Positions 4,025-53,980 of a DNA stretch of 64,000 nt are shown piece after piece (positions within the stretch are counted from its first letter, which is position 1; each line of letters opens with the position of its first letter). The notes under the pieces are model-generated. The model was not told where the DNA came from, searched no databases, and was given only the letters and a program-made list of their open reading frames with translations. This stretch comes from Patescibacteria group bacterium (GTDB lineage: Bacteria > Patescibacteriota > Patescibacteriia > Patescibacteriales > WJLG01). The stretch spans positions 98,737 through 162,736 of the forward strand of contig JAQTUZ010000001.1 of assembly GCA_028707065.1 (NCBI GenBank), given 5' to 3'. Made by a program: the position numbers and the translations under genes.

Positions 4025-5659
4025 TTGTCAATGAAAATCGTTAAAAATATCTTAAAATCGTTGAATAACAGGAAAATCGCCATGCTCGGGCTGGGGGTGG
4101 AAAATTTGGCGTTGGTGAAATATTTGTTACGCCGCAGTCCCGCGGCGGAGACTGCGGCGGGGCAAGGTTTGCACATTACCGTTTGTGATCCAAAGTCGGC
4201 GGCGGAATTGGGCGACAGATATTTGGAAATCAAGCAGCTGGCGAAGAAGAATAAATTGCCGGAAATAATTCTGATGACCGGCAAGAATTATGACGCGCAT
4301 CTGGCGGATTTTGACATTATTTTCCGTTCGCCCGGCTATCCGCTGTTCAATCCGAATTTGCTCAAAGCGAAAAAGGCCGGCGTGATAATTTCCAGCCCGA
4401 TGAAATTATTTTTTGAATTGTGTCCGACGAAAAATATCATCGGCGTCACCGGCTCGAAAGGTAAAGGCACGACTTCGTCGCTGATTTATGAAATTTTAAA
4501 AAAAGCCACAACCACCCCCGGAACCACCCCCAAACCCCTCCTTCGAAAGGAGGGGAGAGTTTGGCTGGGTGGAAATATCGGCAATGCGCCGTTTGAATTT
4601 ATCGAGAAAATAAAGCCGAAGGATTTCGTGGTTTTGGAATTATCCAGTTTTCAATTGGAAGATTTGGATGTGAGTCCGCATATTGCCGTGGTCACGAATT
4701 TATTCAAAGAACATTTGGCTCCGGCCGATCCGAACAATCCGAATTATCATCGGTCAATGAAAGATTATTGGGCGGCGAAAGCGAATATTTTCTCGCACCA
4801 GCAAAAAAATGATTATTTGGTTATAAATGAAAAATTGAAAAACAAAATTCCCCTCTCGAGAGGGGTGGCCGCGCCGCGCGGACGGGGTGTGTTAAATGGC
4901 GGCACAAAAGTAATCTTTTGTTCTAGCTCTGCTTTGCCAAGTAATTTGATTGGGGCGCATAACAAAGAAAACTTGGCGGCGGCCGAGGCGGTGGCGAAAA
5001 TTTTGAAGATCAAGCCGGAAATCGTGGCGCGGGCGGTGAAAAATTTCCAGGGCTTGCCGCATCGGCTCGAATTTGTGGCTGAAATTAACGGCGTCAGATA
5101 TTTTGATGATAGCTTTGCGACCGTGCCCGATGTTTCGGTAATCGCGCTTAAAGCGGTCGGCGGAAAGTCCCCTCTCGAGAGGCCCACCTACGCTAAAGCT
5201 CCGGTAGGGCAAGGGTGGCCAACCTTAAAAGAGATAGCTTGTCCAACGAAGCTCCGCCGCGGAGCGAAGTTGGAGGGTGTGTTAAAGTTGGGTGGTAGTA
5301 AAAGCGAGATTGCTTCGCGAGGCGCTCGCAATGACAAAAATATAATATTGTTGGCCGGCGGCGCGGACAAAGGTTCGGATTTTAAAAAATTCGCCCAAGA
5401 AATAACCAAGCGCGTAAAATATTTAATTTTATTCAAAGGCAAAGGGACGGATAGATTGAAGAAAGAATTACAAATTACAAATTACAAATTTCCGATCATT
5501 GCAGTTGACACTATGAAAAAAGCTGTGGAAATTGCCAGACGAGAGGCGGAGTTGGGCGACGTTATCCTGCTTTCCACCGGTTGCGCCAGCTTCGGCTGTT
5601 TTAAAAATTATAAAGAACGAGGTGACTTTTTCAAGGAGGAGACGCTAAAAAACAAATAA
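4025..5659 (+). CDS. murD: UDP-N-acetylmuramoylalanine--D-glutamate ligase with several repeat-derived insertions
   Basis: 544 aa; Mur ligase P-loop GVTGSKGKGTT, GGNIGNAPFEF, HRLEFV, LLAGGADKGSDF; extra segments match dispersed repeats. Confidence 0.9.
   Translation: MSMKIVKNILKSLNNRKIAMLGLGVENLALVKYLLRRSPAAETAAGQGLHITVCDPKSAAELGDRYLEIKQLAKKNKLPEIILMTGKNYDAHLADFDIIFRSPGYPLFNPNLLKAKKAGVIISSPMKLFFELCPTKNIIGVTGSKGKGTTSSLIYEILKKATTTPGTTPKPLLRKEGRVWLGGNIGNAPFEFIEKIKPKDFVVLELSSFQLEDLDVSPHIAVVTNLFKEHLAPADPNNPNYHRSMKDYWAAKANIFSHQQKNDYLVINEKLKNKIPLSRGVAAPRGRGVLNGGTKVIFCSSSALPSNLIGAHNKENLAAAEAVAKILKIKPEIVARAVKNFQGLPHRLEFVAEINGVRYFDDSFATVPDVSVIALKAVGGKSPLERPTYAKAPVGQGWPTLKEIACPTKLRRGAKLEGVLKLGGSKSEIASRGARNDKNIILLAGGADKGSDFKKFAQEITKRVKYLILFKGKGTDRLKKELQITNYKFPIIAVDTMKKAVEIARREAELGDVILLSTGCASFGCFKNYKERGDFFKEETLKNK
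4511..4555 (+). repeat. family B element (with a 9-nt partial duplication), in frame in murD
   Basis: ACCACCCCCgga-ACCACCCCCAAACCCCTCCTTCGAAAGGAGGGG; peptide TTPGTTPKPLLRKEG right after the P-loop. Confidence 0.85.
4849..4896 (+). repeat. family A element, in frame in murD
   Basis: TCCCCTCTCGAGAGGGGTG-GCCGCGCCGCGCGGAC-GGGGTGTGTTAAA; peptide IPLSRGVAAPRGRGVLN. Confidence 0.85.
5168..5285 (+). repeat. long-A element (about 118 nt), in frame in murD
   Basis: Collinear with the intergenic copy at 60891-61008, about 85 percent identical by eye; shared GCTCCGCCGCGGAGC hairpin. Confidence 0.85.
5307..5339 (-). repeat. family C hairpin (ATTGC/GCAAT variant), in frame in murD
   Basis: Reverse complement reads TTTTGTCATTGCGAGCGCCTCGCGAAGCAATCT, collinear with TTTTGTCATCCTGAGCGCCGCGCGAAGGATCT at 10466. 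Confidence 0.75.
5467..5491 (+). repeat. (ATTACAA)x3 heptamer tract inside murD
   Basis: Tandem heptamers read in frame as LQITNYKF. Confidence 0.8.
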
Positions 5660-8912: not shown

Positions 8913-10463
8913 GTGTTATGTGTTATGTGTTATATTATTTTTTTATCTATATTTTTAATTCTGTTTTCTGTTTTGGCCTGGCGTCGGCTTGATTGGGCGG
9001 TAATGCTGATTATCGCCGGATTGCCTTTATATTTGGTCAGATTTAAGGTATGGTCGATACCAATGACGCTTTTAGAAGCGATGATCTTGATCGCTTTTTT
9101 TTGTTGGATTATTTTTAAAACAAAATTTTGGGATTTTTTACGAGGGAAATATAAAATTAAAGATTTTTTAAAAAATAGTCCGTGGAATAAAAAGGGCAGC
9201 GCGGAGGGGCGAAGAAGATATCCTTTCGGCATCGAAATAATTTTACTTTTGATCATTTCGTTTGCCGCCGTGGGCGTGGCGCATTTTTCCGCAACATCTT
9301 TGGGGCTTTGGAAGGCCTATTTTTTTGAGCCGATCTTGCTGTACATTCTGATCTTGAATATATTTCAGGAGTCCCCCCTCCTTTCTAAGGAGGGGTTTGG
9401 GGGTGGTTATAGTGGCGTTAATAAAATCGGCTTGAGTCTGGCCGTTGGCGCCTTGATCGTTTCTTCTTATGCTATCTTCCAAAAGTTCACCGGTTTCGGC
9501 ATTGATAATCCGCTCTGGGCGGCCGAAACAACGCGCCGGGTGGTTTCATTTTTCGGCTATCCCAACGCGGTAGGTTTGTATCTTGGGCCGGTCATTCCGG
9601 TTTTAACCGCCTTTTTATTTTTGCCGCCCAAGAAAGATTTTTCTCCGCTCGAGAAAAAAATTCATTATCCTCTTCCCGAAGAAAAAATTTCCGCGATTAG
9701 TTTGTCAAAAGGTTTTTTAGGGTTTATTATCGTTTTGTCATTAGCGGCGGTTTATTTTGCCAAATCGGACGGAGCGCTGATTGGCTTGGCCGTTGCCGCT
9801 TTTATTTTTTGTTTGTTTATTAATAAAAAAGCGCGGATCGCGGTTCTGGCCGTTGTCGTGATCGCCGCGATCGGAATTTATTTTTATCCGCCGATTGCCA
9901 AGCCGCTCGAGAGAAAAATAACCATCGAAGATTTTTCCGGACAGGTGCGCCGCTTGCAATGGAAGGAAACCTTAATGATGCTTAACGGGGAGAAGAAGAT
10001 TTGGGGGATCGGCCTGGGGAATTTTCAGCAAGCGGTTGCGCCCTATCATCAGCCGGGATTTTTTTATGATGACGGCACTGATCCTTTATTCCACCAGCAC
10101 ACGGTTGAAAGCGCCGCCGTTCGCGCCCGCACCTGGCAGCCGGTGGAAATATATCTGTATCCGCACAATATCATTTTAAATTTTTGGGTAGAATTAGGCT
10201 TGGCTGGGCTATTTTTATTTGTTTGGATTTTCGGCAAAACAATTTATCTTTTATCATCTATCGTTTATCATTTTAAGGCGAAAAAAGATAAAACAAGTTT
10301 ATTTTTAGCCTTAGGCTTGCTATCCGCAATAATTGTTATTATCGTCCATGGTCTGGTCGATGTCCCTTATTTTAAGAACGATCTATCTTGTATTTTTTGG
10401 ATTTTAGTGGCAATATTGGTTTTGTTGGATTTGAGAAATAAAGATAAACGAATTGAATGTTGA
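8913..10463 (+). CDS. O-antigen ligase / Wzy-like polytopic membrane protein
   Basis: 516 aa, more than 10 TM helices with a large loop (YPHNIILNFWVELG type motif); contains a family B repeat. Confidence 0.55.
   Translation: MLCVMCYIIFLSIFLILFSVLAWRRLDWAVMLIIAGLPLYLVRFKVWSIPMTLLEAMILIAFFCWIIFKTKFWDFLRGKYKIKDFLKNSPWNKKGSAEGRRRYPFGIEIILLLIISFAAVGVAHFSATSLGLWKAYFFEPILLYILILNIFQESPLLSKEGFGGGYSGVNKIGLSLAVGALIVSSYAIFQKFTGFGIDNPLWAAETTRRVVSFFGYPNAVGLYLGPVIPVLTAFLFLPPKKDFSPLEKKIHYPLPEEKISAISLSKGFLGFIIVLSLAAVYFAKSDGALIGLAVAAFIFCLFINKKARIAVLAVVVIAAIGIYFYPPIAKPLERKITIEDFSGQVRRLQWKETLMMLNGEKKIWGIGLGNFQQAVAPYHQPGFFYDDGTDPLFHQHTVESAAVRARTWQPVEIYLYPHNIILNFWVELGLAGLFLFVWIFGKTIYLLSSIVYHFKAKKDKTSLFLALGLLSAIIVIIVHGLVDVPYFKNDLSCIFWILVAILVLLDLRNKDKRIEC
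9375..9407 (-). repeat. family B element (inverted orientation), in frame in the Wzy-like gene
   Basis: Reverse complement ACCACCCCCAAACCCCTCCTTAGAAAGGAGGGG differs at 1 nt from 4523-4555; peptide SPLLSKEGFGGG. Confidence 0.85.
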
Positions 10464-10465
10464 AT

Positions 10466-10623
10466 TTTTGTCATCCTGAGCGCCGCGCGAAGGATCTATT
10501 GTCCGAGAAAAATATCAAAATATCATTAAATATTAGAATCGATATGGCGATAAAAATTTTGGAAACGGAAATTTAACCTTCCTGCAATATAGATCCTTCG
10601 TCTCACGACTCAGGATGACAAAA
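10466..10623. mobile_element. MITE-like element with family C terminal inverted repeats
   Basis: TTTTGTCATCCTGAG..GAAGGATCTAT at the left, its reverse complement at the right, about 85 nt AT-rich core, no ORF. Confidence 0.65.
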
Positions 10624-10629
10624 TAATTT

Positions 10630-10723
10630 GGAGATGTGCCAGAGTGGTCGCCCGCTACGTCGGCCTTTGGCCGCGAGCGGGTCCGCGCACGCCGCCATCG
10701 GGCGGCGATGTCGCGGAAATGGG
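10630..10723 (+). pseudogene. duplicated 5' part of tRNA-Ser interrupted in the D-loop by a family E element
   Basis: GGAGATGTGCCAGAGTGGTCG [67 nt] AATGGG versus intact GGAGAGGTGCCAGAGTGGTCGAATGGG at 10980. Confidence 0.7.
10651..10717 (+). repeat. family E GC-rich double-hairpin element
   Basis: CCCGCTACGTCGGCC..GGCCGCGAGCGGGTCCGCGCA..ATGTCGCGGA; a reverse-complement copy lies at 15234-15297. Confidence 0.85.
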
Positions 10724-10729
10724 ATTATT

Positions 10730-10975
10730 ATGTATTATGTTTATTTTATAAAAAGTTTTAAAAATGGGAGTTTGTATATTGGATCAACGGAAGATTTAAG
10801 AAAAAGACTGGCGGAACATAACGCGGGAAGAACCCAATCAACCAAACCATTTTGTCCCTGGGGAGTTGTATATTATGAGGCTCATTTGAGTAAGGAATTA
10901 GCCAGACGAGCGGAAATATTTTATAAGACTGGGCAAGGGCGAAGACAAGTAAAGAAAAAATTAGGAATTGAATAA
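10730..10975 (+). CDS. GIY-YIG nuclease family protein
   Basis: MYYVYFIKS..GSLYIGSTEDLRKRLAEHN is a GIY-YIG core; start moved from 10628 to the in-frame ATG 10730 because upstream codons are tRNA fragment plus repeat. Confidence 0.8.
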   Translation: MYYVYFIKSFKNGSLYIGSTEDLRKRLAEHNAGRTQSTKPFCPWGVVYYEAHLSKELARRAEIFYKTGQGRRQVKKKLGIE

Positions 10976-10979
10976 TTTT

Positions 10980-11066
10980 GGAGAGGTGCCAGAGTGGTCG
11001 AATGGGCTTGACTCGAAATCAAGTGTGTTCGCAAGAATACCGAGGGTTCGAATCCCTCCCTCTCCG
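10980..11066 (+). tRNA. tRNA-Ser (anticodon CGA)
   Basis: Hand-folded cloverleaf: acceptor GGAGAGG/CCTCTCC, anticodon arm CTTGA-CTCGAAA-TCAAG, long variable arm, T-loop TTCGAAT. Confidence 0.9.
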
Positions 11067-11108
11067 CTAGAAAATTTAAATTACATTGCTAAAATGTAAA
11101 ATAACCTT

Positions 11109-11426
11109 ATGGGTTTATTAGATTTTTTATCAGAAATTTTTGATGGAAATTCCAGTAGAGAAAATAAAACATATATTGATGAAAACGGTTATAGAAGGTT
11201 TTCAGACTCCGATAAATTAGTAAGCCGTTGGATAGTTGAGAAAAAATTAGGCAGGAGACTTAATCAGGACGAAGAGGTTCACCACAGAGACAGAAACAAG
11301 TTAAATAATCGCCCAGGCAATCTCGAAGCCCTAACTCCTGAGGAGCATAACAGAGAACATGGACTTCCAGATGATTATAATTTAGATTATGATAATGATC
11401 TTGATGATTATGACGATGACTTTTAG
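11109..11426 (+). CDS. HNH endonuclease with acidic C-terminal tail
   Basis: EEVHHRDRNKLNNRPGNLEALTPEEHNREH is an HNH motif. Confidence 0.8.
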   Translation: MGLLDFLSEIFDGNSSRENKTYIDENGYRRFSDSDKLVSRWIVEKKLGRRLNQDEEVHHRDRNKLNNRPGNLEALTPEEHNREHGLPDDYNLDYDNDLDDYDDDF

Positions 11427-11484
11427 GGCGTGATATTCCTTACTAGGGTCCCAACTTCGTCCCGCGCACCCCGCTAACTAAAAT

Positions 11485-11509
11485 AACCCGACCGCCGGGT
11501 TGTTTTTTT
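11485..11509 (+). terminator. rho-independent terminator
   Basis: AACCCG-accgc-CGGGTT followed by a T7 run. Confidence 0.7.
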
Positions 11510-11549
11510 AAAGTCGGGGAAATGCTATAATTTGGGCATAATTATAATC

Positions 11550-12587
11550 ATGGACAAATTTATGAAAGACAAATTTTTAAACATTTGTTTGATCGTCGTT
11601 ATCCTGCTTATCGCCGCGGGCGGGACTCTGTATTTTAATCGCCAAAAAATTTCCTGGCTAGAAAACAAAAATAATCCCGCGCCGAGCACGTTGGTTGGGA
11701 ATGACCGCGACGCGCATGGTTGCATCGGTTCAGCCGGATATTCCTGGTGCGAAGTCAAACAAAAATGTTTGCGCTCCTGGGAAGAGCCTTGCGTAGCGGC
11801 TACCAGTTCGAACATCGTCAAATATTTTTGCCAGGAAGGAATCTTGCGGGCGAATTATGGCACCAGTTCGGTGGGCTTGATATTAAAAAATGGCAGCACC
11901 ATGACTTTGCCGCAAACCAGATCCGGCTCGGGGATTCGTTATGAAGAAGGATCGACGGTATTGGCGAGCAAAGGCGATAACGCTTTCTTGACGCAAAAAG
12001 ATATTACAACATATACTAACTGCGTTGCCGGCAATCAAACCGTTTCCGGCGATACCGCTACTTACACCGACGCGGAAAAGACTTTTTCTTTTTCTCGCCC
12101 CAATCAATTTGTTTTGTCTGGCGGAGAAATTGGTTTTTCGCAGAGCTGGAGTTATAATTCAAGCGGCCTGGGATCGCTTTTGGCCGTCGTGGATATTCCC
12201 CGCTCGTTTATGCCGGGGACAAATTTTGGCGAAGCAAAATTTACGGTGGGCGCCAGCGGCGATCCGGCTGAAGTGAAGAATTGTTTAAAATCAAACTACG
12301 GAGAGATGGGGTCGACTACCAAGGCGACTATCGGCGATCGCAATTTCACCAAAATAAATTTTACCGATGCGGGCGCGGGAAATTATTATGACATTACCAG
12401 CTATCGCACGCTTTATAACGGACAATGCTACGCCGTTGAGAGCTTGATCCATTCTACCAATATTGATAATTATCCGCCCGAACAAGGGATCAAGCAGTTT
12501 GACCGTTTGAAAATCGGTTTGGTCCTGCAGAATATGGCGCAAAGCTTTGAATTTTTGCCCCAGACCGCGACATCTTCCGCGCAATAA
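11550..12587 (+). CDS. membrane-anchored secreted protein with an MliC-like (lysozyme inhibitor) domain
   Basis: N-terminal TM; YFCQEG...LPQTRSGSGIRYEEGSTVLASKGDNAFLTQKD...NC fits the MliC pattern; start set at ATG 11550 because TTG 11532 abuts the TGCTATAAT box. Confidence 0.6.
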   Translation: MDKFMKDKFLNICLIVVILLIAAGGTLYFNRQKISWLENKNNPAPSTLVGNDRDAHGCIGSAGYSWCEVKQKCLRSWEEPCVAATSSNIVKYFCQEGILRANYGTSSVGLILKNGSTMTLPQTRSGSGIRYEEGSTVLASKGDNAFLTQKDITTYTNCVAGNQTVSGDTATYTDAEKTFSFSRPNQFVLSGGEIGFSQSWSYNSSGLGSLLAVVDIPRSFMPGTNFGEAKFTVGASGDPAEVKNCLKSNYGEMGSTTKATIGDRNFTKINFTDAGAGNYYDITSYRTLYNGQCYAVESLIHSTNIDNYPPEQGIKQFDRLKIGLVLQNMAQSFEFLPQTATSSAQ

Positions 12588-13393: not shown

Positions 13394-13870
13394 ATGAAAA
13401 AAAGAATTTTAATTTTAGGCGGCTGCATCTTGGTCTGTTTGTTCGTCGGATTAATCGGGTCGATTTTTACGACGCCGGCTATCGGATCTTGGTATGTATT
13501 CCTCAATAAGCCGGCGTTTAATCCGCCGGCCTGGATTTTCGCGCCGGTTTGGACATTGCTCTATATATTGATGGGCATCGCCTTGTTTTTGGTTTTTCGA
13601 AAAGTTAGGGAGAATAAATTAGCTAAAACCGGTTCAATAATTTTTGTAATTCATCTGGCGCTTAACGCATCCTGGTCGATCATTTTTTTCGGCGCCAAAA
13701 TGATCCCGCTGGCTTTTGCTAATATTGTAATTCTCTGGCTGCTAATTGTTTATTTGATCATTGTTTTTTGGCGGATTGATAGGCGAGCATCGATCCTGCT
13801 TTGGCCTTATTTGGCTTGGGTTTCCTTCGCCTCGGTATTGAATTTTTCATTAATGCTGTTAAATCGCTAA
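13394..13870 (+). CDS. tspO: TspO/MBR family tryptophan-rich sensory protein
   Basis: 158 aa, 5 TM helices; FNPPAWIFAPVWTLLYILMG and WPYLAWVSFA motifs. Confidence 0.85.
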   Translation: MKKRILILGGCILVCLFVGLIGSIFTTPAIGSWYVFLNKPAFNPPAWIFAPVWTLLYILMGIALFLVFRKVRENKLAKTGSIIFVIHLALNASWSIIFFGAKMIPLAFANIVILWLLIVYLIIVFWRIDRRASILLWPYLAWVSFASVLNFSLMLLNR

Positions 13871-14034
13871 GGGGTCTGTTGCTGAATGCCGTATTTGTCC
13901 TAAATCTTCAAATTTCGGTAAATTTTTTCAAAAATATTTTCGCCGATATTGTTATATCGCCTCAAAAATTTTTGAAAAAATTTCCTCAAAATTTGAAAAT
14001 TTATGCCTAAAAGAGCATTCAGCAATAGACCCCC
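13871..14034. repeat. long imperfect hairpin / MITE-like element
   Basis: GGGGTCTGTTGCTGAATGC at the left versus GCATTCAGCAATAGACCCC at the right (18 of 19 complementary), AT-rich partly palindromic core. Confidence 0.6.
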
Positions 14035-14100
14035 TTTTTCTTGCTTTTTTTGTCAAAGTTTTATAGTATTAAAAACAGCCCAGATCGGGTTGTTTTTATT

Positions 14101-14124
14101 CGGGGTATAGTATAGCGGTAGTAT
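14101..14124 (+). pseudogene. tRNA-Pro-like 5' fragment (acceptor plus D-arm only)
   Basis: CGGGGTA-TA-GTAT-AGCGGTA-GTAT, then hairpin CCCGCCatccGGCGGG; no anticodon arm follows. Confidence 0.6.
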
Positions 14125-14158
14125 CCCGCCATCCGGCGGGACAAGCGCGCCTAAAAAA

Positions 14159-14229
14159 CGGGCTGTAGTATAATGGTAGTACGCGTGCATGGGGTGCATG
14201 TAGCCGCGGTTCGATTCCGCGCAGCCCGA
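14159..14229 (+). tRNA. tRNA-Pro (anticodon GGG)
   Basis: Acceptor CGGGCTG/CAGCCCG, anticodon arm CGTGC-ATGGGGT-GCATG, T-arm CGCGG-TTCGATT-CCGCG. Confidence 0.85.
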
Positions 14230-14241
14230 CAGAATTACGTT

Positions 14242-14297
14242 GAAATTCTCGGAGCGAAGCGGAGACCCCGCTGGATAGCGGGGCCAGTACCCCGACA
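14242..14297 (+). pseudogene. tRNA-Pro-like 3' fragment with the T-loop replaced by a GC hairpin
   Basis: TTCTCGG [31 nt incl. CCCCGCtggataGCGGGG] CCAGTACCCCGACA versus intact TTCTGGGTTCAAATCCCAGTACCCCGACCA. Confidence 0.55.
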
Positions 14298-14346
14298 GGA
14301 TCAATTAACAATTAAAAATTAAAAATGAGGAATTATTGTTTATTGA

Positions 14347-14411
14347 GGGTAATTAGCTCAGTTGGTTATCCGCCCCAGGCGGACCCGCCTTGGGCGGGGA
14401 GCGCTACACCC
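14347..14411 (+). pseudogene. tRNA-Val-like 5' fragment with a 31-nt double hairpin in the D-loop
   Basis: GGGTAATTAGCTCAGTTGGTTA [TCCGCCccaGGCGGA CCCGCCttgGGCGGGg] AGCGCTACA, then no 3' half. Confidence 0.6.
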
Positions 14412-14447
14412 TTAAGCAAATAAAAAGTTTTTAAAACTAGAACACAG

Positions 14448-14521
14448 GGACAATTAGCTCAGTTGGTTAGAGCGCTGCATTCACATTGCAGAGGTCACTG
14501 GTTCGAGCCCAGTATTGTCCA
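14448..14521 (+). tRNA. tRNA-Val (anticodon CAC)
   Basis: Acceptor GGACAAT/ATTGTCC, anticodon arm CTGCA-TTCACAT-TGCAG, T-arm ACTGG-TTCGAGC-CCAGT. Confidence 0.9.
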
Positions 14522-14525
14522 CCGA

Positions 14526-14596
14526 GGGCCTATAGTCTAGCGGTACGACGCTACATTCGCATTGTAGAGGCGGCAGTTCGACTCTGCCTAGGTCCA
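14526..14596 (+). tRNA. tRNA-Ala (anticodon CGC)
   Basis: Acceptor GGGCCTA/TAGGTCC with a G3:U70 pair, anticodon arm CTACA-TTCGCAT-TGTAG. Confidence 0.9.
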
Positions 14597-14630
14597 CAAG
14601 AAGATTTTTTAGTCGTGAATTAATGATGAA

Positions 14631-14688
14631 GTCCTCCTTCGCGGCATTGGCGGGCTTAGCCCGCCGAAGTCCGCTTCGGCGGACGAAG
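14631..14688 (+). repeat. GC-rich three-stem element abutting the 5' end of tRNA-Gly
   Basis: Outer CCTTCG/CGAAGG, inner GGCGGGCttaGCCCGCC and GTCCGCttcgGCGGAC. Confidence 0.6.
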
Positions 14689-14761
14689 GCGGGAGTAGCT
14701 CATCTGGTAGAGCGCGACCTTCCCAAGGTTGAGGCAGCGGGTTCAAGCCCCGTCTCCCGCT
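14689..14761 (+). tRNA. tRNA-Gly (anticodon CCC)
   Basis: Acceptor GCGGGAG/CTCCCGC, anticodon arm CGACC-TTCCCAA-GGTTG. Confidence 0.9.
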
Positions 14762-14926
14762 CATAAAATTAAAAATCAGTTTTTCTGATTTTTAATTTTA
14801 TCGGACGAAAGGGGGTTGAACTAGGCAGGAGCGAGGCAAATTTTCTGCTATTTCAGTAAGTAAATTGTAAATTTTGAAGCGCAAATTAATTTATAATTTG
14901 TAATTCATAATTTATAATTCCAGTAA

Positions 14927-15008
14927 GGGCATGTGGCGAAATTGGTAGACGCACACGCTTCAGGTGCGTGCGGAGCAATCCTTGAGAGTTCGAGTCTCTC
15001 CATGCCCA
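14927..15008 (+). tRNA. tRNA-Leu (anticodon CAG)
   Basis: Acceptor GGGCATG/CATGCCC, anticodon arm CACGC-TTCAGGT-GCGTG, long variable arm. Confidence 0.9.
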
Positions 15009-15134
15009 CTACATCAATTAAAAATTAAAAATGCAAAATTAAAAATATTTTAATTGACACGCAAATATTTATATTGTAAGGTAAATTCATTAATTGAATT
15101 TTTAACTTTTCACTTTTAATTTTTAATTGATTTT

Positions 15135-15211
15135 CGGGGTATGGCCTAACTGGCTATGGCGCACGCTTCGGGTGCGTGAGGTTCTGGGTTCAAATCCCAG
15201 TACCCCGACCA
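15135..15211 (+). tRNA. tRNA-Pro (anticodon CGG), CCA encoded
   Basis: Acceptor CGGGGTA/TACCCCG, anticodon arm CACGC-TTCGGGT-GCGTG, T-arm CTGGG-TTCAAAT-CCCAG, ACCA tail. Confidence 0.9.
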
Positions 15212-15218
15212 TTTTCAC

Positions 15219-15317
15219 GAGAGTTCTGGGGTTTCCGCGACATTCCGCCATGGGCGGATGCGCGGACCCGCTCGCGGCCCCTGGCCGACGTAGCGGGCAA
15301 GTCCCAGTACCCCGACA
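15219..15317 (+). pseudogene. duplicated 3' part of tRNA-Pro(CGG) with a family E element in the T-loop
   Basis: GAGAGTTCTGGGGTT [64 nt] AAGTCCCAGTACCCCGACA, starting 7 nt after the intact tRNA. Confidence 0.7.
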
Positions 15318-15321
15318 AATA

Positions 15322-15348
15322 AAAAAACGGCGAAAGCCGTTTTTTTTG
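15322..15348 (+). terminator. rho-independent terminator ending the tRNA cluster
   Basis: ACGGC-gaaa-GCCGT followed by a T8 run. Confidence 0.75.
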
Positions 15349-15484
15349 TTGGCATACAGCTTTTAAAAAAGTTGGAAAACAAATTCGCAGCCGTCTTATT
15401 TTTATGTTATAATAATCATATTCGTCGTGGCGCAAATTATACAGGGACTGCGGCTAAAAGCGGCTAGCGGTCATCCATTAATTT

Positions 15485-17230
15485 ATGCGAAGGAAAACGG
15501 CCAAGGAACCTGAAAAAAATATTTTCAGCAAATTAGGTTTGAAATTGATCATTCCTTTTTTTGCCATTTCTTTTATCGCCTTGCTTTTGATCGGCGGGCT
15601 TTTTTATTTTCAATATCAGGCGCAAATCAGCTTCGTGCAAAAGATCGAGCAGAATATTTCTTCCCCGGCCGCCGCTCGCGGGCTATTGGCGGAATTGCCG
15701 GCGCAGGAATTGGCGCGGGACAGGCAAATTTTTTATCTGGCCGGCGGCAGCGCGATTTTCATCCTTTTGCTTTTTATCGGTTTGATCATTTTTTTGATTT
15801 ATCGACAGTTGCTTAGGCCGTTGAGATCTTTCGAGCAAAAGATCGCCGAAATGAAAAAGGGCGGCCTTGATAATAAGATCAAGCTGGCGGCTACGGATGA
15901 ATTGGGCTATTTGGCGGATATTTTTAAGCAAATAAACGGTCATTTGCAAGAAACTTATGTCCGCGCGGAAGAGACGATCAAAAAAAGAACCAAAGACGCG
16001 GACAGGATGGTCGCGGTCTTGCAGAAGAAAAATTTAAAAATGAAGGATAAAGAAGCCACTCTGGCAAATCGGCTCGAAGACGCCTTTTTGCTGGAGAAAG
16101 AGCTGAAAGAAGGAAGGGATCGGGTGAGCGCGATCATCGCCTGCATGGGCGAAGGATTGATCGTCACCGACAAGGCGGGAAAAATTATTTCCCTTAATCC
16201 GGCCGCGGAATGGATGCTGAAAATAACCGCCAATAAGGTCGCCGGCCAGAATCTTGACGCCGTGGCGCCTCTTTTTATCGGCAAGGAGTGCGAGAAAAGG
16301 GTTCCGTTCGTGGATTATCCGACCATCAAGGCCATTCGCTTCAGAAAAATTTTGATTTTCAATCTGACCGATGACTATTATTTCTTATCGAAGTCGGGCG
16401 CGAAAATGGCGGTTATTTTATCATCTTCGCCGCTCTTGAAAGAAGGGAGGGTCTTCGGCGCCGTAACTATTTTCAGGAACATGAGCGCGGAGAAGCGGCT
16501 GGATGATGCCAAAAATAATTTTATTTCGATCGCTTCCCACCAATTGCGCACCCCGCTCACTTCAATGCGCTGGTTTTCCGAGATGCTTATTTCCGGAGAT
16601 GCCGGCGTCATCAATAAAAAGCAGACAAAATTCGTGGAGCGCATTTATCAGGGCACGGAGCGCATGATCAGGTTGGTGAATCTTCTCTTGCAGATCGCTC
16701 GCGTCGAGGCGGGCCGCGTCAAGATCGAGCCGATCCCCATTGATTTCAAAAATACCATCCAGGGAGTGGAGATCACGCTCAAGACTTTGCTGGAAGAGAA
16801 ATCGCAAAGATTGAAGATGATTTTCAAGCCCGATCCTTTTCCTTCCGTTTACATGGATCAGGAAGTGATTTGGCAGGTTTTTCAGAATTTGCTTTCCAAT
16901 GCCAGCCGTTACGCGTCCAGGAGAAGCACGATCACCGTAACCGCTGAAAAAAAAGGCGAGCTGGCGGAATTTTCCATCGCCGATAAAGGGATCGATATTC
17001 CCCACGACGCGCAAGACCGGATTTTCCATAAATTTTTCCGCGCGGAAAACGCCATCAAGATCGTCCCCGAGGGTTCGGGGCTGGGCTTGTCTTTGGTAAA
17101 ATCGCTGGTCGAGGGCTGGGGAGGGAAAATCTGGTTCAAATCCCAAAAAGGCAAGGGGACCACTTTTTATTTCACCGTTCCTCTCTCCGGCATGAAGCCG
17201 AAGCGCGGGGATGTGGGCTTGGCAATATAG
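15485..17230 (+). CDS. sensor histidine kinase (TM-HAMP-coiled coil-PAS-HisKA-HATPase)
   Basis: 581 aa; H-box SHQLRTPLTSM, N-box NLLSNASRY, G-boxes DKGIDI and GSGLGLSL. Confidence 0.9.
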   Translation: MRRKTAKEPEKNIFSKLGLKLIIPFFAISFIALLLIGGLFYFQYQAQISFVQKIEQNISSPAAARGLLAELPAQELARDRQIFYLAGGSAIFILLLFIGLIIFLIYRQLLRPLRSFEQKIAEMKKGGLDNKIKLAATDELGYLADIFKQINGHLQETYVRAEETIKKRTKDADRMVAVLQKKNLKMKDKEATLANRLEDAFLLEKELKEGRDRVSAIIACMGEGLIVTDKAGKIISLNPAAEWMLKITANKVAGQNLDAVAPLFIGKECEKRVPFVDYPTIKAIRFRKILIFNLTDDYYFLSKSGAKMAVILSSSPLLKEGRVFGAVTIFRNMSAEKRLDDAKNNFISIASHQLRTPLTSMRWFSEMLISGDAGVINKKQTKFVERIYQGTERMIRLVNLLLQIARVEAGRVKIEPIPIDFKNTIQGVEITLKTLLEEKSQRLKMIFKPDPFPSVYMDQEVIWQVFQNLLSNASRYASRRSTITVTAEKKGELAEFSIADKGIDIPHDAQDRIFHKFFRAENAIKIVPEGSGLGLSLVKSLVEGWGGKIWFKSQKGKGTTFYFTVPLSGMKPKRGDVGLAI

Positions 17231-52381: not shown

Positions 52382-53197
52382 ATGCTCGATGATTTTATGT
52401 CTTTCTTCATCGATAGCGCCGACAATCCGAAAATAAAAAATATCCTCAAATTGCAAAGGCCCCACGAGCGCAAAAAGCAGGGGGTAGTTTTGGTTGAGGG
52501 CTATAAAGAAATTCTGGCCGCACTCAAGGCCGGTTTGAATTTGGTGGAAATTTTTTATTGCGCGACTTATGGCGGAGAAAATCCTTCTTTTTTCGGCGTG
52601 GACAAAGACAAAAAATTAATCGCCAATGTTTCGCGGGAAGTTTTTGAAAAAATCACTTATCGCGAAAAGCCCGATGGCTACATCGCGATTTTTTTGGCTC
52701 GAAATTTAAAACTCTCTGATGTAAAATTAAGCGCGGCGCCGCTGGTTCTGGTGATCGAGGGCGCGGAAAAGCCCGGCAATTTCGGAGCGATCCTGCGCAC
52801 CGCTGATGCGGCCGGAGTCGATGTGGTCATAGCCAATGATCCGCAATTGGATATCTATCATCCCAACGCCATCCGCGCGAGCATTGGCGCGGCTTTTGAC
52901 AAGCAGATCGCCATCGCCACCCGCGAAGAAACGATCGCCTGGTTAGCTGAAAATAATATTACGACTTACGCCACTTCTAAGCGCGCCACCAAAGTCTATG
53001 TTGATTTTGATTATACTCAAGGCACGGCTTTTATTTTGGGCGCCGAACATGCCGGCTTAAGCGAAGAATGGAAAGATTCGGCTGACGAATTCATCACCAT
53101 CCCGATGACCGGTATCGTCGATTCGCTCAATCTTTCCGTCAGCGCCGGCATCTTGCTTTTCGAAGCTGTCCGGCAACGGAAAAAAATCCCCTCTTGA
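52382..53197 (+). CDS. SpoU/TrmH family RNA 2'-O-methyltransferase
   Basis: PGNFGAILRTADAAG, ILGAEHAGLS, IPMTGIVDSLNLSVSAGILLFE. Confidence 0.85.
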   Translation: MLDDFMSFFIDSADNPKIKNILKLQRPHERKKQGVVLVEGYKEILAALKAGLNLVEIFYCATYGGENPSFFGVDKDKKLIANVSREVFEKITYREKPDGYIAIFLARNLKLSDVKLSAAPLVLVIEGAEKPGNFGAILRTADAAGVDVVIANDPQLDIYHPNAIRASIGAAFDKQIAIATREETIAWLAENNITTYATSKRATKVYVDFDYTQGTAFILGAEHAGLSEEWKDSADEFITIPMTGIVDSLNLSVSAGILLFEAVRQRKKIPS

Positions 53198-53235
53198 GAG
53201 GGGTGGCTCGCGCCTCGCGGGACGGGGTGTGTAAA
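53187..53235 (+). repeat. family A element supplying the last codons and the stop of the TrmH-like gene
   Basis: TCCCCTCTTGAGAGGGGTG-GCTCGCGCCTCGCGGGAC-GGGGTGTGTAAA; the TGA within CTCTTGAGAGG is the stop. Confidence 0.8.
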
Positions 53236-53431: not shown

Positions 53432-53512
53432 AGAACATTATCAGAGTGTATTAAGTGACAATTAAAGGTGGTTGAGCTTGCTATTTAGTCCACAAAAAGA
53501 TATAATGATCTT

Positions 53513-53980
53513 ATGACATGGAATTATATAGCAGGATTTTTTGACGGTGAAGGATCTTTGGTCCATCACGGGAAAGGATTTAGGGTTACTATTTCCCAGA
53601 CGAATTTTGAAGTTTTGGAATCAATTAGGACATTTTCCGGAGTTGGTTATGTTATTAAGCCAAGAAAAAGAAAAGCTCACTGGAAAGATAACTGGGTGTA
53701 TTATGTGGCCCGGCAAAAGGATGTTTATTTTTTTATGATGAAGATGAAGCCATTTTTAGTTGTTAAAAGAGATCTTTTTCTTTCGGTTGAAAATAAAATT
53801 TTAAATTTTGTAAAAAGACAGAAAGAAAAAAATATTTTTCGAGAAAGAAAGGCGAACTTGGCCGTTAGATTAAGAAATGAAGGATATAGTTATCGAGAAA
53901 TAGGAAAAAGAACGAATACTGATTTTGGACAAATAAGAAGAGTTATTTTAAAGCATGGTGGTCGTAGCTCAATTGGTTAG
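53513..53980 (+). CDS. LAGLIDADG homing endonuclease (single-motif type)
   Basis: IAGFFDGEGS motif; TATAAT box 6 nt upstream of the ATG; the last 24 nt overlap tRNA-His. Confidence 0.85.
   Translation: MTWNYIAGFFDGEGSLVHHGKGFRVTISQTNFEVLESIRTFSGVGYVIKPRKRKAHWKDNWVYYVARQKDVYFFMMKMKPFLVVKRDLFLSVENKILNFVKRQKEKNIFRERKANLAVRLRNEGYSYREIGKRTNTDFGQIRRVILKHGGRSSIG

Follow-up and report, generated by a model that had tools for sequence, protein, structure and literature searches.

The described systems that stand closest to the structure considered here all involve transfer RNA (tRNA) genes and mobile DNA. Our subject is a complete tRNA-Pro(GGG) gene lying between the two ends of another tRNA-Pro gene, at positions 14101-14297 of a 64,000-nucleotide (nt) stretch from a Patescibacteria group bacterium (metagenome-assembled genome, contig JAQTUZ010000001.1); this stretch is called the window, and coordinates refer to it unless a related locus, designated by an L number, is named. 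Partial tRNA genes left behind by integrative elements are well known (PMC9897764). In phage T4, the GIY-YIG homing endonuclease SegB is encoded in the tRNA cluster, recognises the T-loop box GGTTCRANTCC and drives the inheritance of the tRNA region (PMC2330249). In Patescibacteria themselves, group I introns have been described in tRNA genes, some of them with homing endonuclease genes (PMC13011429). Our literature searches retrieved only these introns and phage SegB, and no description of nested or ghosted tRNAs, or of cassettes joining a UPF0213-type GIY-YIG gene, a hairpin and a tRNA, in Patescibacteria. As documented below, the locus belongs to a known kind, namely the tRNA remnants generated by mobile DNA, and is possibly an entry point to an undescribed class of tRNA-targeting cassettes. 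The region 14101-14297 is best explained as a resident tRNA-Pro(GGG) that was broken and replaced in place, probably as a relic, devoid of any open reading frame (ORF), of a nuclease-associated replacement; the remnants, here called ghosts, are non-functional and lie on either side of an intact second allele.

In the window, as in all relatives, the tRNA array starts with a conserved upstream block (14040..14100, + strand, as are all features of the locus; CTTGCTTTTTTTG..AAAGTTTTATAGTAT..AAAACAGCCC-loop-GGGTTGTTTTTATT), which comprises a promoter-like stretch, a hairpin and a T-run, and is 91.8% identical to L072 in alignment. It is followed by the 5' remnant of the resident tRNA-Pro(GGG), a 24-mer made up of the acceptor 5' strand and the D arm (14101..14124; CGGGGTA-TA-GTAT-AGCGGTA-GTAT), then by a GC hairpin (14125..14140; CCCGCC-ATCC-GGCGGG) that represents a remodelled anticodon arm or else belongs to the GC-hairpin modules associated with ghosts (see below), and by a junction consisting of ACAAGCGCGCC and an A-rich spacer (14141..14158). 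The inner tRNA-Pro(GGG), which is the replacement allele (14159..14230; acceptor CGGGCTG/CAGCCCG, T stem CGCGG/CCGCG), includes the sequence GCGTGCATGGGGTGCATGTAGCCGCGG and was called by ARAGORN as well as by the Rfam tRNA model (58.8 bits, E = 1.4e-11, match at 14159-14229), in agreement with the original prediction that it is complete. Its 3' end abuts an AT hairpin (14231..14249; AGAATT-acgttga-AATTCT), also found in L054 with a loop shorter by 1 nt; next comes a GC-rich segment with a second GC hairpin (14250..14283; CGGAGCGAAGCGGAGA, then CCCCGC-TGGATA-GCGGGG at 14266-14283), which stands where the resident T loop would be. The 3' remnant closes the structure with the T-stem 3' strand CCAG, the acceptor 3' strand TACCCCG, the discriminator A and the flank CA (14284..14297). 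The gaps between the remnants and the inner gene thus measure 34 nt on the 5' side and 53 nt on the 3' side, and neither contains an ORF; over the entire 14101-14297 region there are only two minus-strand frames, which run across the tRNA itself. Every element described in the original prediction was indeed found where it had been placed, base for base, and its remark that the outer acceptor stem is the same as that of tRNA-Pro(CGG) at 15135 was borne out, the strands being identical. The 3' 14-mer, CCAGTACCCCGACA, recurs at 15304-15317 and, with one mismatch, at 15197-15210.

The ancestral state of the site was established with relatives that were sampled by way of the upstream TspO gene and its homologues (72-82% amino acid identity), without recourse to the remnant. 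Five distinct syntenic genomes were obtained (L058/59, L060, L061, L072/73 and L074/75), and in all five a single intact tRNA-Pro(GGG) sits directly after the upstream block. These intact genes share the acceptor CGGGGTA/TACCCCG, the D arm of the remnant, the T stem CTGGG/CCCAG (CTCAG in L060) and the flank ACA, in the pattern CGGGGTA...CCCAGTACCCCGACA. The remnant 24-mer matches the syntenic gene of L058, L072 and L074 at 23 of 24 positions, and the 3' remnant is identical to the 3' end and flank of those in L058, L061 and L072. Since the five syntenic genomes have an intact gene at the same position, the outer pieces are the two ends of the resident, ancestral tRNA-Pro(GGG) of this site, and the inner gene is a second, different allele that now does the job; the two alleles differ mainly in their acceptor and T stems. 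This supports the first of two readings offered in the original prediction, an old tRNA-Pro split and accompanied by a replacement tRNA; the comparison of related genomes that it had proposed did not reveal unrelated sequence in the flanks, which match the intact gene instead. The TspO protein is 77-81% identical to that of the window in all five relatives, a range that carries no signal on whether the replaced genomes form a clade. A scan of genome contigs with TspO gave a fragment of 24 residues and otherwise relatives of only 33-56% identity; the ten that were scanned for tRNAs all lacked the array. Exact-protein look-ups matched the window TspO to one short Logan contig ending before the array, and the histidine kinase to nothing.

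A separate set of relatives came from an exact-match metagenome scan with the remnant 24-mer, which gave ten loci. In half of them (L048, L050, L051, L052 and L055) an intact tRNA-Pro(GGG) begins exactly with the 24-mer. The gene ends in ...CCCAGTACCCCGA in L048, L052 and L055, and in L050 and L051 it shares the 5' half and acceptor stem, has a different T stem and ends in ...CCGGCTACCCCGA. Four others (L049/L053, L054 and L056) carry the 24-mer about 57 nt upstream of the same inner allele as in the window, at the head of an array ordered Pro-Val-Ala-Gly-Leu-Pro. The tenth locus, L057, has the 24-mer at the start of a longer tRNA-Pro(CGG) 5' ghost; GC hairpins come next, and an intact tRNA-Pro(CGG) after them. 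Judged by sequence comparison, the match of the outer pieces to tRNA ends is far beyond chance, because the 24-mer is the exact 5' end of intact genes in five independent metagenome contigs and the 14-mer is the exact syntenic 3' end with its flank. The two remnants do not always occur together: in L053 and L056, the 5' remnant unit and the inner allele are present and the 3' remnant is missing; in L061, the resident-type gene is intact and only a 3' ghost comes after it (GGTTC, a 30-nt GC double hairpin insert and AATTCCCAGTACCCCGACA); and both remnants are present only in the window and in L054. The 5' and 3' remnants may therefore come from separate events. Thus, of the earlier idea that the gene was split by an insertion, the splitting and replacement of the resident gene stand, although a single event for both remnants is not required.

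The 5' remnant unit, i.e., the tRNA-like 5' half, the GC hairpin and ACAGGCGCGCC, could alternatively be a functional leader of the array transcript, for instance one that insulates folding or takes part in processing or regulation. Four lineages in which the spacers between tRNAs cannot be aligned conserve the unit, and within the joining segment at 14141..14158 the alignment retains ACA(A/G)GCGCGCC in the window, L054, L053 and L056. The hairpin has a variable loop and a compensated stem, in which L054 shows a compensatory change (CCCGTC/GACGGG) and L053 a G-U change (CCTGCC/GGCGGG). L054 has two units in tandem. The whole 197-nt region also folds better than its shuffles (z = -3.7), a value that is to be expected from a tRNA together with several GC hairpins. 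Nonetheless, the five syntenic relatives do without the unit, the carriers were recovered through the remnant's own sequence, a single compensatory change underlies the case for the stem, and co-transfer with the replacement allele can explain the conservation. A dedicated leader function is therefore regarded as improbable.

The second reading of the original prediction was a nested precursor of unknown processing. A related possibility is a genuine split or nested tRNA, in which the outer halves would be joined, or act as a bipartite tRNA, after excision of the inner tRNA from a common precursor; the perfect 7-base-pair complementarity of the outer acceptor strands and the discriminator A speak for it. 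However, a canonical tRNA was taken here to have a 7-nt anticodon loop and a T arm and to score above the Rfam RF00005 threshold of 29 bits, and the outer pieces, with their 4-nt loop (14131-14134), are devoid of a 7-nt anticodon loop, of an anticodon and of a T arm; they also lack the anticodon-stem context needed for a bulge-helix-bulge motif. The covariance-model and intron checks that had been suggested for the outer pieces both came back negative. In the Rfam scan of 13500-15900, the outer pieces gave no tRNA signal at E <= 10, the sole tRNA match within 14101-14297 being the inner gene, and neither group I nor group II introns were matched. ARAGORN, allowing introns up to 400 nt and lowered thresholds, called no tRNA that uses the outer pieces, nor did it call any in three in silico spliced constructs from which the inner gene had been removed. 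With all Rfam families at the same cut-off, 13500-15900 and the separate interval 10400-11600 returned only intact tRNAs and noise, and nothing on the GC hairpins or outer pieces. Moreover, the 3' half is missing in L053/L049 and L056, and an intact tRNA of the same anticodon lies inside. A true split tRNA was accordingly rejected, its residual probability being very slight, and a nested precursor is not supported as a designed feature; the outer complementarity is an inheritance from the old acceptor stem and not a new processing helix. The locus resembles the group I introns of Patescibacteria in its phylum, in having tRNA genes as targets, the anticodon loop included, and in the involvement of homing-endonuclease families; unlike them, it has no ribozyme match in Rfam, the gene is restored by a second DNA copy instead of by splicing, and the interrupted copy is dead.

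The phenomenon is recurrent and not a one-off. A blastn census of 15 loci, which hold 66 intact tRNAs, counted about 25 tRNA fragments lying next to these genes on the same strand, with recurrence at Ser, Val, Ala and Pro(CGG) across the window and its relatives; wherever the two could be compared, the ghost corresponds to the allele that sister genomes carry intact, and the functional gene represents another allele. In the window itself, a tRNA-Val 5' ghost (14347..14412, +), whose D loop holds a GC double hairpin of 29 nt and which continues with GAGCGC-TACACCC, lies upstream of the intact tRNA-Val at 14448 and is identical to 14452-14469 of that gene at 18 of 18 positions; fuller Val ghosts occur in L054, L060 and L072. 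Downstream of the intact tRNA-Pro(CGG) there is a 3' ghost of that gene (15224..15317, +), the T loop of which holds a 64-nt GC double-hairpin element in reverse orientation (15234-15297); its CAAGTCCCAGTACCCCGAC is identical to the L056 allele (19/19), and the ghost is absent from L072. Among the relatives, a tRNA-Val is nested between 5' and 3' Val ghosts in L060 (5749-6150). In L054, a split tRNA-Ala encloses a second tRNA-Ala, with a perfect inverted repeat of 19 nt at the flanks (2470-2690); L054 also has a Val ghost that is almost full-length and carries GC inserts in its D loop and in its T loop. In L050 (2558-2745) and L051 (443-700), the anticodon loop of one tRNA-Pro houses a tRNA-Pro(GGG), and there is an inverted repeat of 12 nt; L051 has two tandem 3' ghosts in addition. 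Lastly, the D loop of a second, near-complete tRNA-Val in L072 (3233-3345) contains a GC insert of 38 nt.

Fragments beside complete genes invite comparison with debris of attachment (att) sites, i.e., attL/attR-type partial duplications from integrase-mediated islands or prophages that later decayed. The literature on partial tRNA genes from integrating elements, which are common in prokaryotes (PMC9897764), favours this origin, as do the large serine recombinase genes near related arrays in L063 and L074. As in attR-type remnants, the complete gene and its partial copy share a strand, the resident sequence being kept in the remnant and the incoming one in the functional copy. Unlike them, remnants occur here on both sides, 5' fragments included, with 34-53 nt of non-tRNA DNA in between and GC hairpins in the remnant loops. 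Many ghosts are in fact 5' fragments upstream of the intact gene, the distance from ghost to gene is just tens to hundreds of nucleotides, and no integrase or recombinase Pfam match was found in the nine largest ORFs between 8.9 and 20.8 kb of the window (smaller ORFs were unscanned). Site-specific integration by an integrase was specifically considered as the origin of the duplications and rejected on the L061 junction, where the GC insert lies between GGTTC and AATT, unlike the product of a core crossover. On balance, an att-site origin appears highly unlikely.

The nature of the incoming DNA is most clearly seen at the tRNA-Ser locus of the window. A 5' ghost of the resident tRNA-Ser, of the GGAGATG type (10630-10650, +), matches the allele of L054 and L058 at 21 of 21 positions and is interrupted in its D loop by a 67-nt GC element, the GC double hairpin (10651-10717, +), after which AATGGG continues the ghost for 6 tRNA nucleotides (10718-10723, +). 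There follow a GIY-YIG ORF of 81 amino acids, UPF0213/Slx1-like (10730-10975, +); an intact tRNA-Ser(CGA) (10980-11067, +), which is a foreign allele 100% identical to that of L063; and an HNH ORF (11109-11426, +). From 11471 (+) the resident sequence resumes with the CCGC of the resident gene's 3' end, the original downstream flank and a terminator, and 11471-11551 aligns to L058 3033-3113. The empty state is found in L058 and L054, which have the intact resident tRNA-Ser without the GIY-YIG gene. At this locus, the DNA between ghost and flank is a nuclease cassette with a foreign tRNA allele. Integration of a circle by a Campbell-type event was dismissed, since the intact tRNA-Ser would then keep the 3' part of the resident gene, yet it is the foreign allele throughout. 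Homologues of the GIY-YIG gene with 85, 71 and 60% identity (L063/64, L065-67 and L070/71, respectively) keep the order of ghost, double hairpin, ORF and tRNA-Ser(CGA) or tRNA-Ser(GGA); in a homologue at 64% (L068/69), the hairpin and ORF are kept and there is no tRNA. A large serine recombinase gene adjoins the tRNA-Ser cassette in L063 (1789-3009, -), and another lies upstream of TspO in L074 (445-1629, -); these may point to larger mobile islands around the arrays.

The best solved relatives of the GIY-YIG protein are the UPF0213 proteins BH0048 and EF2693, and SLX1. The protein is a catalytic domain only and has no DNA-binding module of the kind seen in I-TevI and SegB. The cassette resembles the intronless homing of SegB, in that a GIY-YIG gene lies between tRNA genes, breakpoints and inserts are at T- and D-loop TCG^AA-like boxes, relatives differ in the presence of the cassette, and flanking tRNA alleles appear to be co-converted in mosaic arrays. 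It differs in several ways: the setting here is a bacterial (Patescibacteria) chromosome and not a phage; the protein is an 81-residue UPF0213/Slx1-like domain; the cassette lies inside a tRNA gene and restores it with a segment that is duplicated or foreign, so that ghosts are left on the 5' and 3' sides; the cassette contains a covarying GC double hairpin; and the Pro locus has no ORF. Viral contigs contained neither a relative of the GIY-YIG gene nor a copy of a 23-mer of the remnant, and blastn of the array against a phage database gave generic tRNA similarity only.

GIY-YIG and HNH are not the only nuclease families next to tRNAs in this window. A LAGLIDADG_3 ORF (53513-53980) lies between tRNA-Arg and tRNA-His, with its last codons and stop inside the 5' part (D loop) of tRNA-His, and a weak, possible 5' His ghost, GGTGGTTGAGCTTGCTATTTAG, precedes it at 53468-53490. 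Three nuclease families (GIY-YIG, HNH and LAGLIDADG) thus occupy the same position relative to tRNAs within one window.

The GC double hairpin deserves separate consideration. In the window, L063, L065, L068 and L070 it follows the pattern (Y)CCGCT..AGCGG(R), then TCCGnnCA, a variable hairpin and ATGnnnCGGA; it is placed 10-14 nt upstream of the GIY-YIG start codon, and compensatory changes occur in 13 of its 27 pairs. No Rfam family matched it in the 10400-11600 scan. Possible roles are those of a cis-regulatory RNA, of a nuclease substrate or of an element end. A covariance model, R1, was built from the full double-hairpin copies, and found a reversed, ORF-less copy in the Pro(CGG) 3' ghost (73.1 bits, 15220-15297, -), such that the window holds two full copies of the 64-66-nt element in opposite orientations (10651-10717, +; 15234-15297, -). 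Simpler hairpins are likewise tied to the ghosts: the CCGCC-N3-5-GGCGG motif occurs five times in the 64-kb window, always in ghosts (one at 14126), against 0.39 expected by chance. Insertion points cluster at TCG^AA-like boxes, namely GGTCG^AAT in the Ser D loop, TTCG^AAA in the anticodon loop and GGTTC(G)^A in T loops, and all clear ghosts derive from C34/G34 isoacceptors (Ser CGA, Pro GGG/CGG, Val CAC and Ala CGC).

These observations also nourish a different explanation, in which GC-rich palindromic hairpins, similar to repetitive extragenic palindromic (REP) sequences or miniature inverted-repeat transposable elements (MITEs), insert preferentially at D- and T-loop boxes and kill dispensable C34/G34 genes, rescue comes from local partial duplication or from homology-facilitated illegitimate recombination with relatives' DNA, and the nuclease ORFs are passengers. 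The exact placement of GC inserts in the D or T loops of ghosts, the occurrence of the element in both orientations and without an ORF at 15234-15297, the restriction of clear ghosts to C34/G34 isoacceptors and the mosaic nature of the array are all in its favour. Against it, the double hairpin co-evolves with the GIY-YIG ORF through homologues of 60-85% identity and keeps its distance to the start codon even where the tRNA is lacking (L068), the three nuclease families share one position relative to tRNAs, and no RAYT-like or transposase gene was found near the array among the nine largest ORFs, the only ones scanned. We consider this explanation rather unlikely.

Evidence of exchange between genomes comes from uneven identity along the array. 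Between the window and L072, the non-coding Gly-Leu spacer is 95.1% identical, compared to 75.3% for both the TspO coding sequence and tRNA-Gly, the latter being a different allele with a GC-rich leader in the window; the breakpoints of this mosaic are inside tRNA genes. Likewise, 14231-14297 is 95.5% identical between the window and L054, and the TspO coding sequence 80.1%. By these identities the array is a mosaic, and the structure shows the tRNA arrays of Patescibacteria to be products of recombination in which one allele takes the place of another. The Pro(GGG) and Ser sites both show presence/absence polymorphism, the empty allele of relatives having the intact target. The Gly leader is a GC-rich multi-hairpin segment (14630-14688) abutting tRNA-Gly(CCC) at 14689-14762; leader and Gly allele are absent from L072, where the Gly allele is 75% identical and the next spacer 95%, both are present in L058, and L061 has a similar leader ahead of an L072-type Gly allele.

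Taken together, we favour a mechanism in which small nuclease-gene cassettes would lodge in tRNA genes at TCG^AA-like boxes of the D, T or anticodon loop. The cassettes would be of different types, one with a UPF0213/Slx1-like GIY-YIG gene preceded by the GC-rich double hairpin, others with HNH or LAGLIDADG genes. The tRNA segment that is interrupted would come with each cassette as a further copy, duplicated or foreign, and an intact tRNA would thereby be regenerated beside the ghost. Between genomes, the cassettes would spread through break-induced gene conversion, for which the tRNA parts would provide the homology arms, and the outer parts of the recipient's gene would be left as ghosts; indirect support for repair of the cut allele from a cassette-bearing one comes solely from the mosaic pattern of identities. 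The ORFs would later decay while GC hairpins and spacers remain, and the Pro locus would be such a decayed cassette. The activity and target of the nuclease, homing as the mode of spread and a former ORF at the Pro locus are thus all presumptive parts of the scheme.

Synthetic 'cleave and rescue' elements, which couple damage to a needed resident gene with a linked working copy, offer an analogy, and only that: the logic is the same, but cleavage of the resident allele and immunity of the delivered allele would be hypothetical here, and the replacement alleles keep the loop boxes.

Several points weigh against the nuclease-associated reading of the Pro locus. There is no ORF at the Pro(GGG) locus of any relative examined, as there is none within the gaps of 14101-14297. 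The hairpins of this region resemble the cassette module at the level of motif only; R1 matched the full copies used to build it and palindromic reverse matches, and left the hairpins of 14101-14297 unscored. It is to be noted that the GIY-YIG protein lacks the DNA-binding domain of classical homing endonucleases, and its sequence-specific cleavage of tRNA genes is a prediction from sequence; its action is possibly structure-specific instead. The D-loop and T-loop boxes retained by the replacement alleles leave their immunity to cleavage unexplained. The 5' remnant unit is well conserved, and a hairpin with compensatory change could mean a function of its own. The 5'-remnant loci, furthermore, carry the ascertainment bias of a search with the remnant's own 24-mer. 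A broader proposition is put forward more tentatively, as a possibility that we do not yet favour: Patescibacteria may harbour natural 'break-and-replace' selfish tRNA-gene cassettes, made of a minimal UPF0213/Slx1-type GIY-YIG nuclease, or analogous HNH and LAGLIDADG enzymes, and a covarying GC double hairpin, which would target hairpin-loop boxes, possibly by structure and not by sequence, insert in the gene and bring a replacement tRNA segment or allele. The Pro locus would then be a fossil, and the 5' ghost unit a travelling homology arm or leader.

Other repeats were noticed in and around the array. An AT-rich, MITE-like insert of about 164 nt (13871-14034), bounded by terminal inverted repeats of 19 nt (GGGGTCTGTTGCTGAATGC / GCATTCAGCAATAGACCCC), is situated between TspO and the array; it is absent in L072 and present in L058. 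AT-rich trailer or leader inverted repeats of genome-specific sequence flank tRNAs at 14300-14334, 15000-15046 and 15098-15144, and in the arrays of L053, L056 and L060; they may be processing stems, or spacer elements evolving in concert. Another GC-rich repeat family, consisting of GAGGGGTGG, a hairpin and ACGGGGTGTG, is represented at 1580-1611, 4849-4893 and 53196-53231; the 53196 copy is placed just past a gene end and is REP element- or terminator-like. A scan for promoters and terminators was uninformative.

Ghosts of this kind can be annotated wrongly, or can mask the history of the tRNA set in genome-reduced bacteria. If the nuclease-cassette reading is true, intronless homing, so far known from phage tRNA clusters, would extend to bacterial chromosomes, with the new twist that insertion is inside the target gene and is offset by the replacement it carries. 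It would also give a testable role to the widespread UPF0213 GIY-YIG proteins of unknown function and to the double hairpin upstream of them, and would provide a route for the turnover and horizontal spread of C34/G34 isoacceptor genes.

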